Positions 5,619 to 63,899 of a stretch of 64,000 bases of DNA are shown piece by piece. Every line of letters begins with the position of its first letter. The first letter of the stretch is position 1. The notes below the pieces were generated by a model. The model saw only the letters and a list, made by a program, of their open reading frames with translations. It was not told where the DNA came from and did no database searches. Source of the DNA: an uncultured Bacilli bacterium (GTDB lineage Bacteria > Bacillota_I > Bacilli_A > RF39 > UBA660); assembly GCA_947627675.1 (NCBI GenBank), contig CANQWY010000002.1, positions 108 to 64,107 of the forward strand. Direction: 5' to 3'. Both the position numbers and the translations under genes were made by a program.

Positions 5619-7284
5619 TCACCAAACAACAAGAGAAAGACGTGAAGCATTTTGCTTATCGCCTGAACCAGTATTGTATATAAAGCCGAAAATACCATTT
5701 TGATTAATATAATTATAGGCACCGCCACAATCAAACCAAGGGTAGGTAGAATTTACAAACTTTTGATAATCTCCATAAAAGCCAGCTGTTCCATCGGCAT
5801 TTGTTGCATCTCCTTTGATTCCAGCACTGCTTGTATATAAATTATAATATTTTCTTTCTGGCATAGGATTAAATCCAGAATTATATACACTATTATTTAA
5901 GCTTCCCATTGTTTTCTCAAAAGCACCTCCTACTGTATCATATATTCCATAGATGGTTCCGGTTGTTGATGCTCCGGTTCCAGCTATTTCTTCATAATAC
6001 TGATGTTGACAACTATTACTTATACTAGCACTTGGGCTTCCTCCACTACAGCTTGTCTTAAATCCACTATAATTATTAGTATAAATCTCTTTATTAGCAT
6101 TTTTATAATTTGAATTTCCATATTTTCCATATTTACTTTGACTTAAGTATGCCATCGCTCCCCATTCCGTATTCTTTATCATATGCGTATCATAATTTTC
6201 TCCGCTTAATCCATAATTATTGGTACCGTTAGTACCGTTTATTTGGCTCTTTATGTTATTAAAAAATGATGAATGACTTTGATTTCTTATACTTGTTTGA
6301 TTAGGTAATGAAGTTATTGCACTTATTGCTCCAGTTAACTCGAATTTGCTTATCCAAATTCCTGGTAATTCTTTATTTTCTGAATTACTTCTGGTTGTTT
6401 CTACATCACAACTGTTGCCCCAACAAAATGATGAGGGTGTATAATAATTACTTGGCGTTGTTCCGGTGTATTTACCTGCTCCTTTTTCGGTTGTAGTCGT
6501 ATTTACAAATTTGATATCGAATGCTCCGGGTGTATTGATACTTGGTGATGATGCTCCTTCTATTTGATAGCCATATTGATCCCTTAATGTATAACTATAT
6601 CTTGGGATCCATACTAACATTAAGTTTACATCATTTAAATCTATTGTTGTTCCTGATGCTGCAGTTTTATATGTTGCTCTCTTAGATGGATCTTTTATCG
6701 TTACAGCATTAGCCCATATTTGTTTATCATAGTTATACCAGCTATTATTTGTATTTTCTTTATCTGCTTTTGCCCAACTACTTCCATTCCAAACTACCGG
6801 GATCATATCTCCTACTAACTCTGGTGCATTTGGTTCATTATTGTAATAGTCTTTTGTTTCTACTTTTAGTTTCCCTTTATAACTTCCTGTCCCTGTAAAT
6901 GTTATTGTTATTTGTACACTTTCTCCTACTTTTAAGTTCGCTTCTTCTATTGTTTTACTTGCTAAAGTCCCTGTTGTTGTCGTACCGTTCTTTGTATAAC
7001 TATAACTTATATTTACATCTTCTATATCTTCAACATACAGTCTATAACTTGCATCTTCTATTCCTCTATTTTCTATTGTAAATGTATATGTTTTATTTAA
7101 TTCGATATTTTCTTTATCTGAACCATTTACTCCATATATTCCTATATATCTTGTCCCTGTTTTTATTGTTATTTCTTTTTTTGTTTCTATACTCTTACTA
7201 TATTTGGCGTAAGTAACCCCCCCCCATTAGAACTATTGTTAGTATTAGGGGTATTACTAACAATATATCTTTTCTTTTTTCCAT
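5619..7284 (-). CDS. Phase-variable SipW-signal/camelysin(TasA)-like large secreted protein, copy A (OFF state as sequenced)
   Basis: ATG at 7284 with an AGGAG RBS. It encodes MEKRKDILLVIPLILTIVLMGGG and then reaches a stop 8 codons after a C9/G9 homopolymer (7217-7225). Removing one G fuses it in frame to the 395-aa ORF 5619..6806, giving about 554 aa. The N-domain resembles TasA/camelysin and the C-domain is Cys-containing and G/Y/N-rich. Confidence 0.7.
7217..7225. repeat. Poly-G/C homopolymeric tract (9 nt) inside the signal-peptide region of copy A
   Basis: taaCCCCCCCCCatt on the plus strand. A 9-mer G/C run is extremely unlikely by chance in roughly 25% GC DNA. Its position sets the reading frame. 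Confidence 0.85.
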
Positions 7285-7490
7285 TTTCTTTCTCCTTCTA
7301 TTTTTATATCTATATAATACACTCAATTCAAAATATTTGCAAATAAAGTACTAAAACTTTTTAATAGACATTTTACAATTTTAAACAGGAACTATCATTC
7401 CTTTAAATTAAATAATTTTACATCTTTTAAATTAAAAAAGCACCTATTAATAATTAGGTGAATTAATTATACTATATATTAGTATTAATT

Positions 7491-33812: not shown

Positions 33813-34143
33813 CTAAATCTCCTTTATTTAATAGTAGAGAAAATAATTGTTTTGTCAAATCTTGATATGTTAAATCTAATGCTCTACTTCTTAATATTAT
33901 AATATAATCTCTATTATTAATATAGCTTTTTCTATAAATATCTAAAATGCTCCTTATCTTTCTTTTATATTTATTTCTAGTAACAGCATTTCCTATTTTC
34001 TTCCCTACAGAAATACCAAATCTATCATATTTTAAATTATTTGATTTAGTATATACTACAAAATATTTATTTTTTTTACATAATCCTTTATTTATTAGAG
34101 CATTAAATTCTTCCTTTTCTTTTACTATATACAGTTTTCTCAT
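33799..34143 (-). CDS. rnpA: Ribonuclease P protein component
   Basis: 114 aa, basic, RNR-like motif region. Between rpmH and yidC. Confidence 0.8.
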   Translation of the reverse strand: MRKLYIVKEKEEFNALINKGLCKKNKYFVVYTKSNNLKYDRFGISVGKKIGNAVTRNKYKRKIRSILDIYRKSYINNRDYIIILRSRALDLTYQDLTKQLFSLLLNKGDLDETK

Positions 34144-34194
34144 TTTTTACCTTCTTTAAAATTTAAAAAACCACTGTTTCATCAAACGGTGGAA

Positions 34195-34317
34195 TTATTT
34201 ACAAAGATTTTTACGCCCTTTACGACGACGACGATTTAATATATTTGTTTTCTTACGTGCAAAAAAGCCTAATTTTTTAGATTTTTTACGATTATTTGGT
34301 TGATAAGTTCTTTTCAT
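34195..34317 (-). CDS. rpmH: 50S ribosomal protein L34
   Basis: Hand-translated 40 aa MKRTYQPNNRKKSKKLGFFARKKTNILNRRRRKGRKNLCK. Not in the ORF track because it is shorter than 60 aa. Confidence 0.9.
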   Translation of the reverse strand: MKRTYQPNNRKKSKKLGFFARKKTNILNRRRRKGRKNLCK

Positions 34318-34439
34318 AAAATTCCACCTCCAGACATAAATCTACCTTATTATAATAAAAAATAGTTTTACTTGTCAATTAAAAGTTGCTTTTTTATACC
34401 AATTTATGCTGAAGATAACATTTTTATTAGTTACTTTTG

Positions 34440-34660
34440 TAATAATTATTAACTTATATAATATAGTTATATGTTTTCCACATAATTAACATACTTGTGT
34501 ATATCTTTTTTTTAACTGTTTATAAAAAAAATTGTGGAAAATGTGGATAAGTTGTTTTTTCTTTTATGAAACAATATTATCTTTTGTGGAAAAAATTGTG
34601 AATTACTTGTGGATTAAATTTTTTATTATTTTTTTATTTATTTTTTCCACAAATTGATTT
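34440..34660. promoter_or_regulatory. oriC upstream DnaA-box cluster (rpmH-dnaA intergenic)
   Basis: Perfect TGTGGATAA at 34543-34551, plus at least 5 one-mismatch boxes (TGTGGAAAA twice, TGTGGATTA, TTTTCCACA twice) in both orientations. Confidence 0.75.
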
Positions 34661-34701
34661 ATTATAATTGTTATATAAGTTGCTTGGAGGGAGATGGTTG
34701 A

Positions 34702-36060
34702 ATGAATGTTGAGGTCCTATGGACCAACTTTTTACAAAAGATAAAAGAAGAACTATCTTCTCTAGCATTTGATACTTGGTTTAAAGATACAAAACTCTTT
34801 AAATTAGAAAATAATAAAGCTATTATTGTTGTTCCTATGCCTATTCATAAAAAGCATTTATCGGATAATTATGAAGAACAAATAAAGTTTATTTTAAATA
34901 CTATTACTGGTAATAATTATGATATCGAATTTTTTTTAGAAGAAGAAATAAAAGAAAGTACTATCAAACAACAAATAGAAGACATTCCTACTAATAAAGT
35001 TGATAATAAAATTAACAACAATCTAAATAGTAAATACTCATTTGAAAATTTTATAGTTGGAAATAGTAATAAATTTGCTCAAGCCGCAGCCTTATCGGTT
35101 GCTGAAAACCCTGGAAAAATGTATAATCCACTATTTATATATGGAAATAGCGGACTTGGAAAAACACATTTAATGCATGCTATTGGTAATTATATCGTTA
35201 AAAATAGCAATAAAAGAGTTTTATATGTAACAAGTGATCAATTTATCCAAGATTTTATCGGTATTAATAAAAAAGATAATACTGGAACAAATTTTAATTA
35301 TGTTGACTTTTTTAAAAACAAATATAGAAATGTTGATGTTTTAATAATAGATGATATTCAATTTCTAGGTGGTGCTACTCAAACTCAGCAGGAATTTTTC
35401 CATACATTTAATACTTTATATAGTGACTCTAAGCAAATAATTATTTCATCTGATAGATCACCTGATGATTTAAAACTTCTAGAAGATCGTCTTAGAACTC
35501 GATTTTGTTGGGGACTTACTGTTAACATTTTTCCTCCAGATTTTAATCTTAGAGTAGAAATTATCAAAAGAAAAATAATAGCTGGTAATTTTGAAAAAGA
35601 AATACCAGAAGATGTTATAGAATATATCGCTTCTAATATGGGAAATGATGTTAGACAATTAGAGGGATCTATAACAAGGCTCGTTGCCTATTCTGCTATT
35701 ATGGGGGGAACCTCAATTACATTGTCTCTTGCAATTGAAGCCTTAAAAGATTTTATAAGTAAAGGCATTAGTGAAAAAAACGATATTCATAGAATACAAA
35801 AAGTAGTTGCAGAATTTTTTCAAATTAGTGTTGAAGATATTAGAAGTAAAAAAAGAAGTAGTAATATTGCATTTCCAAGACAAATAGCAATGTATTTATG
35901 TAGAAACATAACCAATGAATCTTTTCCTAAAATAGGAACAGAATTTGGAGGCAAAGATCATTCTACTGTTATGCACTCAGTAGAAAAAATATCTCAAGAA
36001 ATAAAAGTTAATAAAGATTTAGATAATATAATAGAAAAATTAAAAAAAGATATTGGCTGA
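34702..36060 (+). CDS. dnaA: Chromosomal replication initiator DnaA
   Basis: 452 aa. AAA+ Walker A GNSGLGKTHL. C-terminal DnaA-box-binding domain. Confidence 0.95.
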   Translation: MNVEVLWTNFLQKIKEELSSLAFDTWFKDTKLFKLENNKAIIVVPMPIHKKHLSDNYEEQIKFILNTITGNNYDIEFFLEEEIKESTIKQQIEDIPTNKVDNKINNNLNSKYSFENFIVGNSNKFAQAAALSVAENPGKMYNPLFIYGNSGLGKTHLMHAIGNYIVKNSNKRVLYVTSDQFIQDFIGINKKDNTGTNFNYVDFFKNKYRNVDVLIIDDIQFLGGATQTQQEFFHTFNTLYSDSKQIIISSDRSPDDLKLLEDRLRTRFCWGLTVNIFPPDFNLRVEIIKRKIIAGNFEKEIPEDVIEYIASNMGNDVRQLEGSITRLVAYSAIMGGTSITLSLAIEALKDFISKGISEKNDIHRIQKVVAEFFQISVEDIRSKKRSSNIAFPRQIAMYLCRNITNESFPKIGTEFGGKDHSTVMHSVEKISQEIKVNKDLDNIIEKLKKDIG

Positions 36061-36202
36061 TATGTGGATATTTTCATTAATAAACTTTTTTTTCCACAAA
36101 CTATTTTTAAAAAAAATATTTATAAAATATGAAAAAATATTGTTTTCCACATTTTCCACAGTTATAATAATAATATCTATAAAAAAGAAAGAAGGAATAT
36201 AG
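36061..36202. promoter_or_regulatory. oriC downstream DnaA boxes + AT-rich unwinding region (dnaA-dnaN intergenic)
   Basis: TGTGGATAT at 36063, TTTTCCACA three times (36090, 36144, 36153), and a run of more than 90% AT between them. Confidence 0.7.
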
Positions 36203-45335: not shown

Positions 45336-45391
45336 TTGAAATAGATAATATAAATAAATTGCTTTTTTTAATAGTTTATTATAAAATGTAA

Positions 45392-45473
45392 TCGTGCAAT
45401 AAATTTATGTGGAAACAGGTCAGGATCGGAAGATAGCAGCCTTAACACAATAGATTTATGTGCACTTTTTTTT
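45392..45473 (+). ncRNA. ffs: Signal recognition particle RNA (small 4.5S-type SRP RNA)
   Basis: Conserved domain IV sequence CAGGUCAGGAUCGGAAGAUAGCAGCC flanked by a pairing helix (GTGCAATAAATTTATGTGG / CACAATAGATTTATGTGCAC) and a T8 run. Located next to tadA and dnaX, as in Bacillus. Confidence 0.6.
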
Positions 45474-57329: not shown

Positions 57330-57600
57330 TACTGATTTAAATGTATAGAAGAAGAGGTTATTATACTGATAATTTAAGAGAGTTTCTGGTTGGTGAAAAG
57401 AAATATTATTGTTTAATAATTATGGCTTTGGAACTATTATATTGATATGTAAATATAATCGTATATAGGCGTTAACTATTTGAGTGTATAATAAAGTTAT
57501 TATAAAGTAAGGTGGTACCACGGATTTAGATTCGTCCTTATATGTTATAATGACTTTTTATTTTTATAAATAAGCATAATATTAAATTTAGATTAAAAAA
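57330..57600 (+). promoter_or_regulatory. T-box riboswitch leader of metG
   Basis: T-box consensus AGGTGGTACCACGG at 57510-57523, followed by U-rich terminator/antiterminator region. About 300-nt leader. Confidence 0.6.
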
Positions 57601-60243: not shown

Positions 60244-60873
60244 AAAGAAAAAAATAAAACATCAAAACAAGTATTATTATCAGTACTTGGAGTAGCAATT
60301 TTGATTGTTGCTGTTGTAGGTATTTCATTCGCTGCTTTTACTTATACTAAAACAGGAGTTCAAGAAAACACTATTTCTACTGGTACCGTTACTATGTCTT
60401 ATACTGAAGGTCAAAATGGTATAAATATTGAGAATGCTATTCCTATGACCGATACTCAAGGTAAGGCTTTAACAGGTGATAATAATGTCTTTGATTTTAC
60501 TGTTTCTGCCACTATCACTGGTAAGACAACTATTAACTATGAGGTTGTTGCTGTTAAAGACTCCTCAAGTACAATTTCTGATGATAGTATTAGATTATAT
60601 CTAGAAGATAGTGATCAACAAAACGAAGGATATGAAGAAGTATTTGGCCCTGCTAAATTTACTGGAATATCATCACCATCTACATATGGAGCCCCAACAG
60701 GAACGATGCAACTTGCACAAGGTTCGTTTACTAATAATGCTGATGATGGTGCTCAAACTACAATTACTAAATATTATCGCTTAAGAATGTGGGTTGATTC
60801 ATCTTATGAACTTACTGGTACTTCTCAAAAATATAAAGTTACTGTTAACGTCTATGGTAAAGGTCAAGATTAA
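60244..60873 (+). pseudogene. Camelysin/TasA-like N-domain paralog lacking a canonical start codon
   Basis: The open frame begins right after a stop at 60241 with a complete SipW-type signal-like sequence (KEKNKTSKQVLLSVLGVAILIVAVVGISFAAFTYTKTG) but no ATG or GTG; the first possible start is TTG at 60301, inside the hydrophobic region. The body resembles the TasA beta-sandwich N-region. Confidence 0.45.
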
Positions 60874-60995
60874 GATTAAATTAAGGAGAGCGTAAGGTCT
60901 TTTTTATTTTTAGAGATAATGCTAGAAGAATAAAGTACTTGAAAATAAAAAATAGATGATGTAGAATTTAAATATAAAATAGAAGGAGAAAGAAA

Positions 60996-62643
60996 ATGGA
61001 AAAAAGAAAAGATATATTGTTAGTAATACCCCTAATACTAACAATAGTTCTAATGGGGGGGGGTTACTTACGCCAAATATAGTAAGAGTATAGAGACTAA
61101 AAAGGAAATAACAATAAAAACAGGGACAAGATATATAGGAATATATGGAGAAAACAAAGAAAATATAGAATTAAATAAAGAATATACATTTACAATAGAA
61201 AACAGAGGAGCAGAAAACGCAAGTTATAGACTATATATCGAGAATATAGAAAATAGTAGTATAAGTTATAGTTATACAAAGAACGGAATAACAACAACCG
61301 GAACATTAGCAAGTAAAACAATAGATGAAGCCAATTTAAAAGTAGGAGAAAAAGTACAAATAACAATAACATTTAGCGGAAGTGGAAATTATAAAGGAAA
61401 ACTAAAAGTAGAAACAAAAGACTATATTAATGAACCAAATGCACCAGAGTTAGTAGGAGATATGATCCCAGTAACATATAATGGAACAAACTGGGTAAAA
61501 GCAGATATAAATAAAAACAATTGGTATGATTATAATAGAGGAGTCTGGGCGAATGCTGTAACGATAAAAGATGCAAATAAAAGAGCAACATACAAAAGTG
61601 CTCAAGCAGGAACACTAATAGATTTAAGTTATGTAAACTTAATGTTAGTATGGATCCCAAGATACTCATATACATTAAGACAATCATATGGATATCAAAT
61701 AGATGGAGCATCAACCCCAAGCATTAATACACCCGGAGCATTTGATATCAAATTTGTAAAGACAAGTACAACCGAAATGGGAAGCGGAAAATATAGTGGA
61801 GAAGAACCAACAGGCTATTTTACACCCTCATCATTTTGTTGGGGCAACAGTTGTGATGTAGAGTCGACGAGAGGGAGCTCAGGAAATACAGAATTATCTG
61901 GAATCTGGATAAGTAAGTTTGAGCTTACTGGAACAATAAGTGTAATAACATCAAAACCAAATGAAACAAGTATAACAAATCAAAGCACATCTTCGTTCTT
62001 TAATGCTATAAAAACACAGATAAATGGAAGTAGTGGAACAACAAATTATGGATTAAGCGGAGAAAATTACGATACGCATATGATAAAGAATACGGAATGG
62101 GGAGCAATGGCATATTTAAGTCAAAGTAAATATGGAAAATATGGTAATTCAAATTATACAGGAGCAAATAAAGAGATTTACATAAACAATTATAGTGGTT
62201 ATAAAACAGGATGTAGTGGAGGAAGTCCAAGTGCTAGTCAAAGTTCTAGTTGCCAATATACTTATAATATAGAAACAAATGGAACCGGAGCCAGTACTAC
62301 TGGAACAATATATGGAATATATGATACATCAGGAGGAGCTTATGAAAGAGTGATGGGGAACTTTAATAATGTGCTACCAGCTTCTAGATTTAATTCCATG
62401 CCAGAAAGAAAATATTATAATTTATATACAGGAACAATAGGAATCAAAGGAGATGCAATAAATGCAGATGGAACGGCAGGTTTTTATGGAGATTATCAAA
62501 TATTTGTAACTTCTTCTCAACCTTGGTTCCAACGTGGCGGTTACTATGGCAATGGTGTTATCGCGGGCGTCTTCAGCTTCTACTACAGCAATGGCGATGC
62601 TATCCACTACCGCGGTTCACGCTTTGCTATTTCTACTTGGTAA
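60996..62643 (+). CDS. Phase-variable SipW-signal/camelysin(TasA)-like large secreted protein, copy B (OFF state as sequenced)
   Basis: ATG 60996 with AGGAG RBS, then MEKRKDILLVIPLILTIVLMGGG, a G9 tract (61055-61063) and a stop 8 codons later. With G8 it reads through LMGGVTYAKYSKS... into ORF 61462..62643, giving about 548 aa. It is 90-95% identical at the nucleotide level to copy A over the 5' 150 nt. Confidence 0.7.
61055..61063. repeat. Poly-G homopolymeric tract (9 nt) in the signal-peptide GG(G) motif of copy B
   Basis: taatGGGGGGGGGttac. Identical in length and context to the copy A tract. Confidence 0.85.
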
Positions 62644-62840: not shown

Positions 62841-63899
62841 TTATTTACTATTATTTAGTTTAATTAACTTATAAAATTTATCATCATATTTTAGTTTTAT
62901 TTCATTATCCAATAAAATATTTATATATATAACTACTGGGTAGCCTTTTACTATATTTAAATATTTGCCATTATTTATAACTTTATAGAAATTATCTTTA
63001 TAGTTTACAATATTACCATCTAACATTTCTGTTTCAATTTTTATATAATACATATTAGATAAATCTAAATTTTTTGTGGATAAAAAATGATTTTTAGTAT
63101 TTTTAGGATTATATGAATACTTTTTATTTAGATATTCAACATAAAAACTGTTAAACCAATCATTTAATTTATTATATTTTTTTATATCAAATCTTTTTAA
63201 ATCATTAATCAACCTATTTTGAATAATTCTATTTTTATTTTCTATTTTTCCTTTAGATGGCACTGTATAAGTAGTAATTAAATTAATTTTAAGATTTTCG
63301 CATATCTTTGCTAACCTAAAAAGTTCTTCTTCTTTTTTATTTAGAATTGTATGAATATCGCAGTATATATTCTCTGGTATACCATATTTTTTTAGAATAA
63401 TATCTAATATACGTAAGTATCCTAAAAGACATTCTTCTGGCATAAAGTAGCCTGCTAATATTTCACCAGTAGCATCATCAATTGCCATATGTAATGAAAA
63501 ATTTTTATTATTCTGTAGCCAGTCGTTAGGGGTTCCGTCAATAATTATTAAAATGCCTCTATTAGGCATTGGTTCTCGTAAAGGATGATATGTATAATCT
63601 TTAATATTTTTATAGCTATTAGGTTTAGGCCAATTAAATTTTTTAAATAAATTTTCATAAAATGAATAACTTCTTTTTTTTAAATTATTTTTTATTACTA
63701 TATCTTGCTTATTTTGATTAAATATAATATCTTCATGATAGATATCCATAAATTGCTGTATACTAATATTTGGATAGTTTAATTTAAAATTTTTAATAAA
63801 ATTAATTTCTTTTATAGATGATGAATTATTAGATGGTTTATTTGATAAGCCATGAATAAGTGCTCTGTTTATATCTTTTTCCATTATAATTTTTGACAT
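62841..63899 (-). mobile_element. DDE (rve-like) transposase ORF of an IS element, possibly N-terminally disrupted
   Basis: Candidate catalytic D in LIIIDGTPNDW, a downstream acidic block, and GK-x-E (VPSKGKIENKNRIIQN) matching the integrase-core E region. The frame is open upstream of the ATG to about 63986, with an HTH-like stretch (GILTGYTKRQI) but no start codon. Confidence 0.5.

Follow-up and report, generated by a model that had tools for sequence, protein, structure and literature searches.

Homopolymer contingency loci are textbook material for a few pathogens and are hardly documented in uncultured commensal Bacilli. Poly-G contingency genes are found in Campylobacter, Neisseria and Haemophilus. 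In Clostridioides difficile, expression of the surface-protein gene cwpV is governed by a terminator in its 5' leader that is subject to phase variation. Among the contingency loci that carry their homopolymer in the 5' coding region are the poly-A tract of Mycoplasma fermentans p78 and the poly-C/G tracts of type III mod genes (PMC3711429). Out-of-frame homopolymers can also be rescued by transcriptional slippage, as in the poly-A genes of endosymbionts (Wernegreen 2010) and the mxiE/spa genes of Shigella, both cited in PMC3711429.

Here, we describe two inverted paralogues, copy A and copy B, from an uncultured Bacilli bacterium. Both lie in one stretch of 64,000 nucleotides, referred to as the window, and both carry a run of nine G residues shortly after the start codon. 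We consider it probable that copies A and B constitute a slipped-strand contingency locus that is OFF at present. The main elements of the two genes are the following.

5619-7284, minus strand: copy A, whole gene, 554 aa if the tract is G8; at G9 the frame breaks after codon 22
7292-7298, minus strand: RBS of copy A, GAAGGAG, 7 nt ahead of the ATG
7282-7284, minus strand: start ATG of copy A
7217-7225, minus strand: G9 homopolymer of copy A, codons 20-23, 19 codons past the ATG
7198-7200, minus strand: TAG closing the 28-codon OFF product of copy A
5619-5621, minus strand: TGA closing the restored frame of copy A
60996-62643, plus strand: copy B, the inverted paralogue, 548 aa if the tract is G8
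60996 and 62641-62643, plus strand: ATG and stop codon of copy B
61055-61063, plus strand: G9 homopolymer of copy B, matching that of copy A in both codon position and register

As written, the frame of copy A encodes MEKRKDILLVIPLILTIVLMGGGYLRQI and then stops at the TAG at 7198-7200. The first G of the tract is the G of an internal ATG (Met20), and the remaining Gs form glycine codons at the end of the signal peptide (LM-GG-VTYA). When the tract length is changed in silico, G8 or G11 yields an uninterrupted protein of 554 aa, whereas G9 yields 28 aa and G10, still closed, 32 aa. Copy B behaves in the same way, being OFF at G9 and encoding 548 aa after restoration of the frame, with no other lesion. 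An earlier, sequence-only reading of this DNA had assigned both copies a common RBS and the same G9 tract at the same codon. Coordinates and register bear this out, and GAAGGAG is identical in copy A, copy B and a third copy from another assembly (L081). The same reading had stated that a shift of -1 joins the start codon to a 395-aa ORF. The removal of one G (or the addition of two) does restore the frame in both copies, but the 395-aa ORF is just the portion that follows the first in-frame ATG at 6806. From this ATG back to the tract the frame stays open, and the interval holds no ATG, GTG or TTG. Additional inactivating lesions in the downstream domain of copy A, which that reading had named as counter-evidence, are absent, and the 554 aa are intact at G8 and G11.

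The paired G9 tracts are not explained by chance. They are the only G or C runs of at least seven nucleotides in the 64-kb window; 0.04 G8 matches are expected by chance per window, and the observed number was reached in 0 of 100 shuffles. As in known homopolymer contingency loci, a tract of about seven or more units lies in the 5' part of the coding sequence, and a change of one unit would toggle between a full-length and a truncated product.

The restored frame contains no stop across 548-559 codons in copy A, copy B and L081. Between copies A and B, dN/dS is 0.26 in codons 51-150 and 0.30 in codons 151-505 (the C-terminal domain), values that rest on more than 200 substitutions. Codons 51-150, which lie between the tract and the first in-frame ATG and include the Ig region, have no start codon of their own. 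They can be translated only from the upstream ATG by way of the tract, and their dN/dS of 0.26 therefore indicates selection on the restored frame. The proposal that the tract is a maintained switch rather than a random frameshift gains support from these ratios and from the lack of further lesions. It is strengthened by the G9 tracts of L081 and of another homologue (L073), the variable tracts of the family and some 17 truncated homologues, all described below.

The 5' ends of the two copies are far more alike than the remainder of the genes, and three further features are needed to describe them.

7135-7312, minus strand: homogenised 5' block of copy A, from -28 to +150, with identities of 97-100% against copy B and 93-100% against L081
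7314-7342, minus strand: promoter-like TTGCAA-17-TATTAT of copy A, a consensus match only, ending about 30 nt before the ATG
60939-60967, plus strand: promoter-like TTGAAA-17-TAGAAT of copy B, at the same distance from the ATG as the site of copy A

Upstream of approximately -28, copies A and B are 43-45% identical, and across the gene body approximately 77-90%; for 60 nt on either side of the tract they are 100% identical. The earlier estimate of about 95% identity over the first 150 nt, with divergence about 20 bp upstream of the ATG, was thus essentially right, the measured values being the 97-100% from -28 to +150 given above. The promoter-like sites of the two copies are different sequences, which puts the beginning of the shared block near the position where transcription would be expected to start. 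Synonymous divergence follows the same pattern, with a dS of 0.096 in codons 1-50 versus 0.40-0.54 elsewhere. Furthermore, identity among copy A, copy B and L081 forms a mosaic along the gene; copy A and L081, for example, are 100% identical over 662-722. The low 5' dS and the mosaic identity support ongoing gene conversion between the copies, as had been suggested from the letters. They also undo an argument made in the same place, namely that two independent genes with the same tract speak for a switch. Because the first ~180 nt, tract included, are homogenised, copies A and B are not independent witnesses, and identical tracts in an identical register would result from gene conversion anyway.

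The protein family to which the two copies belong yielded 1839 matches, with several members in a genome. They come from MAGs that carry the label uncultured Bacilli or Tenericutes, and from Candidatus Onthousia. Approximately 17 close homologues have been called as the same truncated ~395-aa ORF, in entries that lack a signal peptide; in the aligned set 13 of them start with MIPV, and others start with MNEPNAP. As gene callers record these genes as ~395-aa fragments, database entries show neither the export signal nor the Ig domain nor the switch. No intact ON protein with the N-terminus MEKRKDILLV... is present among 5.8 billion clustered proteins, and the protein cluster of the window gene has a single member. 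The scan of GTDB representatives returned no genome closer than 53% identity, and scans of JGI metagenomes and IMG/VR returned nothing of the window-type cassette.

The 5' cassette recurs in L081, an ENA locus from an independent SPAdes assembly of another sample, again with G9. All three copies of the cassette (A, B and L081) accordingly carry G9, with no length polymorphism among these three. An unrelated G9 within a coding sequence is found in L073, where the N-terminus reads MMKKRVWGG..., and it also needs -1. The in-CDS tracts found (A, B, L081, L073) are hence G9 in 4/4 cases and need the same -1. Sense-strand tracts of G7-G12 occur at the 5' end of many homologues in other species, with joined as well as unjoined frames. 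The loci of P0117 and P0118 have ordinary promoters and no tract. At a further locus from JGI (P0047, L082 400-450), the gene is split by a frameshift outside any homopolymer; the first 120 nt of this contig are GC-rich, which suggests a chimeric assembly.

At 23 other loci, a tract on the sense strand is found within a short leader ORF, 120-200 nt ahead of the family gene. These loci include the following.

L029, 2815-2960, 4781-4926 and 6760-6900: leader tracts of tandem paralogues, G9, G9 and G10
L054, 700-850: leader tract
L066, L068, L076, L078 and L083-L095: further loci with leader tracts

The leader tracts (n=23) comprise three of G7, one of G8, eleven of G9, seven of G10 and one of G11. 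The leader ORF either has a strong RBS in front of it or is the extension of an upstream ORF, and its peptide frames are conserved, reading ...TRLQxV[TK]W-GG before the tract and [QS]F..LSNKITFF... after it. These two frames are joined in approximately 4-6 of the 23 loci. With lengths from G7 to G11 and both frames present, it follows that tract length varies in the family, and that it does so in the DNA. Of the three registers, one carries the leader ORF on to a TAG that is situated in a terminator-hairpin loop; the other two close it 8-21 nt past the tract. The hairpin has 8 conserved pairs, one of them with a 10:10 CG/UA compensatory exchange, and is followed by a T run. Judged from this arrangement, the leader-type loci look like a phase-variable leader-peptide attenuator. 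Rfam holds no family for the G-tract leader and gave nothing at copy A or copy B in the window. Our full-text literature search found no paper describing a homopolymer-controlled leader-peptide attenuator. If the variant with leader ORF and terminator works as proposed, it would represent a new coupling of a hypermutable tract to transcription attenuation.

For copies A and B, we postulate that slipped-strand mispairing during replication would change the length of the G9 tract in the signal-peptide coding region. A tract of G8 or G11 would join the start codon to a secreted protein of 554 aa, and G9 or G10 would end translation after 28 or 32 codons. The commonest tract length in this assembly would thus place both copies in the OFF state. 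If, for each paralogue, the cells in the ON state are a minority, a metagenome consensus would be expected to show all family members as OFF. The tract would switch the presence of the protein, and its specificity would vary between paralogues. We infer that the tract length changes at this locus, and that it is the DNA rather than the mRNA that changes.

The main rival to a length-switched tract is constitutive recoding, which we regard as unlikely. Here G9 would be fixed and functional, and the frame would be restored either by RNA polymerase slippage, giving G8 transcripts, or by a ribosomal +1 shift on GGG_GGG_GGU; either route would give the same MGGVTYA product as G8 DNA. Programmed slippage would also show itself as a fixed out-of-frame tract, and the in-CDS tracts are G9 with the same required shift in 4/4 cases, although this uniformity is not very surprising because G9 is also the modal length among the leader tracts (11/23). 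The count of 17 truncated versus 0 intact homologues with this N-terminus fits recoding too, as does the rarity of GGG (5% of the glycine codons in 19 housekeeping ORFs of the window), which would slow decoding inside the run. Moreover, there are documented cases of ancient homopolymer frameshifts that selection maintains and transcriptional slippage rescues (Wernegreen 2010 and Shigella mxiE, cited in PMC3711429). Against recoding, leader tracts within the family differ in length, from G7 to G11, and include both frames, which places the length changes in the DNA. No stable structure begins in the few nt that follow the tract, as the hairpin responsible for the z-score of -2.75 lies 78 nt downstream. 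The shift site also has neither a Shine-Dalgarno-like stimulator nor a 0-frame stop, unlike prfB. Recoding and contingency are also not mutually exclusive, as slippage on any G9 tract would take place at the DNA level and at the RNA level alike.

Sequencing or assembly error, in which the true tract would be G8 and both genes intact, is very improbable. Homopolymers are error-prone, and both frameshifts fall exactly in homopolymers. However, the same G9 appears in the independent SPAdes assembly of another sample (L081), and the further ~17 database homologues are truncated at the same place. The window contains many runs of 8-9 A or T (14 A8, 27 T8), and none of them disrupts a housekeeping ORF. 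Tract lengths of G9-G10 are also the most frequent in the non-coding leaders, for which the frame is irrelevant. Least probable of all, by a slight degree, is that an old frameshift has been spread by gene conversion between two dead, decaying paralogues: both copies are out of frame and a start-less N-domain remnant (60262-60873) just upstream of copy B shows that decay occurs in the family, but purifying selection past the tract (dN/dS 0.26-0.30 over 200+ substitutions) argues that A and B are not pseudogenes, approximately 530 codons remain open past the tract in A, B and L081 despite a genome of 25% GC, and AF2 models the product at a pLDDT of 90.

With the contingency locus as the preferred reading, the protein placed under its control can be considered. 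The predicted product of copy A, together with the variable segment of copy B, is divided as follows.

6852-7145, minus strand: Ig-like beta-sandwich of copy A, aa 47-144 of the ON protein, which needs the frame restored at the tract
5622-6806, minus strand: C-terminal C-type-lectin/FGE-like domain of copy A, aa 160-554, identical to the '395-aa ORF'
5622-5768, minus strand: hypervariable C-terminal segment of copy A, aa 506-554, with a weak DGR-like codon signature
62497-62640, plus strand: hypervariable C-terminal segment of copy B, GC-rich, with mostly NNC codons

The AF2 model (80 homologues) reaches a pLDDT of 90.2. In it, a helix at residues 3-28 forms the N-terminus, a beta-sandwich follows at 47-144, and residues 160-554 make up a large C-terminal domain. 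Pfam returned only sub-threshold DUF11/Ig matches at aa 59-146, and the NCBIfam search of the copy A protein gave no match. On the basis of the model, the product would combine a signal or TM helix, an Ig-like domain and a domain of C-type-lectin fold that is most similar to DGR variable proteins and whose C-terminal binding face would be hypervariable, and it is most likely a ligand-binding protein that is surface-exposed or secreted. The motif ...GG-VTYA-KYS of copy A presumably resembles the TasA signal. TIGR04088 (cognate_SipW) gave no match to the copy A N-terminus at E <= 10; the N-terminus of the homologue P0028 scored 15.4 bits against it, below the cut-off of 19.

Across 28 close homologues, the last ~45 residues are hypervariable within a fixed scaffold, GG..Y..G-V.AG[IV]F.F...G...SR. 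The residues K, E, Q, M and W, which are unreachable from AAY, account for 5.9% (38/642) of the variable columns in this segment and for 21% (308/1470) of the other variable columns of the same domain. The frequency of C at third codon positions is 0.53 in the segment of copy B versus 0.10 in the rest of that gene; in copy A the difference is weak, at 0.22 versus 0.11. The copy B segment reaches up to 55% GC in a genome of 25% GC. Comparable NNC-rich segments are present in L017, L013, L042, L012, L018 and L015. Read from codons and residues, this spectrum may be the footprint of DGR mutagenesis, faint in copy A. Two features of DGR targets were found, namely a lectin fold that carries the variable region and a residue spectrum reachable from AAY.

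The other components of a DGR were sought at several levels. A template repeat of either VR was not found in the window (blastn) or in 102 loci, including an adenine-tolerant sliding search of 92 VRs, and degenerate TR patterns were absent from IMG/VR and the fetched loci. A motif scan detected no RT-like ORF in the window or the fetched loci, and no RVT family occurs within 10 kb of P0061. This latter homologue is a tract-less family member that lies beside priA/tex in a spore-former and is recorded on 16 contigs. Its four fetched loci (L099-L102, from 4 samples) are identical and carry K, E and Q in the 'variable' segment, without the DGR signature; P0061 thereby serves as a non-variable control inside the family. 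A profile search of PDB sequences returned no relative. As the protein does not resemble solved DGR proteins in sequence, its connection with them is purely one of fold. With no template repeat or RT in the window or the fetched flanks, and with P0061 lacking the signature, we describe the protein as a putative DGR-variable-protein-like lectin-fold protein and do not file it as a DGR target. At another locus, L080 (1985-2135), an AAC-rich non-coding, TR-like repeat of the C-terminal segment of the gene is situated 110 nt downstream of a family gene. This repeat is imperfect, with many mismatches at its adenines and also at non-A positions, and the lengths differ by a few codons; it is followed by smc, and there is no reverse transcriptase there.

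These observations permit a broader and more tentative hypothesis, which we hold to be possible but somewhat less than an even bet. The G tract may belong to a portable switch module, made up of RBS, ATG, a short coding stretch and Gn. This module would serve a large DGR-type family of hypervariable lectin-fold proteins from uncultured gut Bacilli, either in frame or in an attenuating leader ORF. Together with diversification of the C-terminal binding face, it would form two stacked layers of variation. For the window, the Gn module would be fused in frame to the gene. For the leader-type loci, one register only would let the ribosome enter the 5' arm and loop of the terminator, which would then be overridden. 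The C-terminal diversification could be retroelement-driven or recombinational, and the two layers would determine whether a paralogue is made and what is bound. This family-wide picture, which we infer, would be the more novel part of the account.

The genomic setting of the copies is defined by the replication origin, which the window spans. On one side lie dnaA (34702-36060), dnaN, recF, gyrB and gyrA, and on the other yidC, jag, mnmE, mnmG, rsmG and parAB. The GC skew changes sign near 34-36 kb, and DnaA-box clusters are located at 34474-34651 and 36063-36160. Copy A is flanked by a HARE-HTH (delta-subunit-like) gene and prfA. The two copies are directed away from the origin, co-oriented with replication. 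The midpoint between their ATGs, 34140, falls in the intergenic region upstream of dnaA (33813-34701), so that the two are near-symmetric around oriC. Recombination between the identical 180-nt 5' blocks would invert a 54-kb origin segment and swap the promoters.

Several neighbouring elements were also noted. The start-less ORF at 60262-60873 (plus strand) contains only an alternative 'type-2' N-terminal domain, 46% identical to the N-terminus of P0036. It ends in ...VNVYGKGQD*, 120 nt before copy B, and L081 retains just its last few codons; it is probably the remnant of a gene whose 3' part the G9 cassette gene replaced. A 352-aa ORF at 62841-63899 (minus strand) is convergent with copy B. 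Its candidacy as a (DDE) transposase was dropped, as Pfam gave no match, and its equal length to prfA beside copy A is a coincidence. An ordinary T-box leader precedes the methionyl-tRNA synthetase gene (57337-57542, plus strand), and an equally ordinary small SRP RNA is encoded at 45390-45471 (plus strand).

Set beside the known systems, the locus shares features with several of them. The DGR variable proteins TaqVP (5vf4), TvpA (2y3c) and Mtd (1yu0) have a C-type-lectin fold, as modelled for the C-terminal domain of copy A; unlike DGR systems, copies A and B have no template repeat or RT in the window or fetched flanks. Our full-text literature search returned no paper that joins DGR-type variable proteins with homopolymer switches. 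The presence of a switch on a large unannotated family with this fold would point to host, phage or immune pressure acting on a binding protein that is secreted or at the surface. The genes rescued by slippage resemble copies A and B in that a nine-base out-of-frame homopolymer is kept in several copies with the downstream frame under selection. They differ in using A/T runs, whereas copies A and B use G, and related tracts differ in length between loci. The leader-type homologues have their counterpart in cwpV, as both would set a surface protein ON or OFF through a leader intrinsic terminator that acts or does not act. In cwpV this is achieved by a recombinase-inverted DNA segment, while in the leader-type homologues the frame of the leader ORF, and with it whether that ORF enters the terminator, would be determined by a G tract.

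The closest likeness is to the SSR contingency loci. Differences from these lie in the host, an uncultured AT-rich gut Bacilli, in the protein family, which is unannotated (no Pfam or NCBIfam match above threshold), and in the tract module, which in homologues is also found in a leader ORF ahead of a terminator. For copies A and B, switching is predicted from the sequence. In common with these loci, copies A and B carry a long homopolymer just past the start codon of a predicted exported protein and are ON at n and OFF at n+1 and n+2. They likewise belong to a multigene family in which most copies are OFF, and the composition of their tract is far from the codon usage of the genome. As a whole, the best-supported reading of the sequence is a functionally classical homopolymer phase-variation locus in a new lineage and a new protein family.
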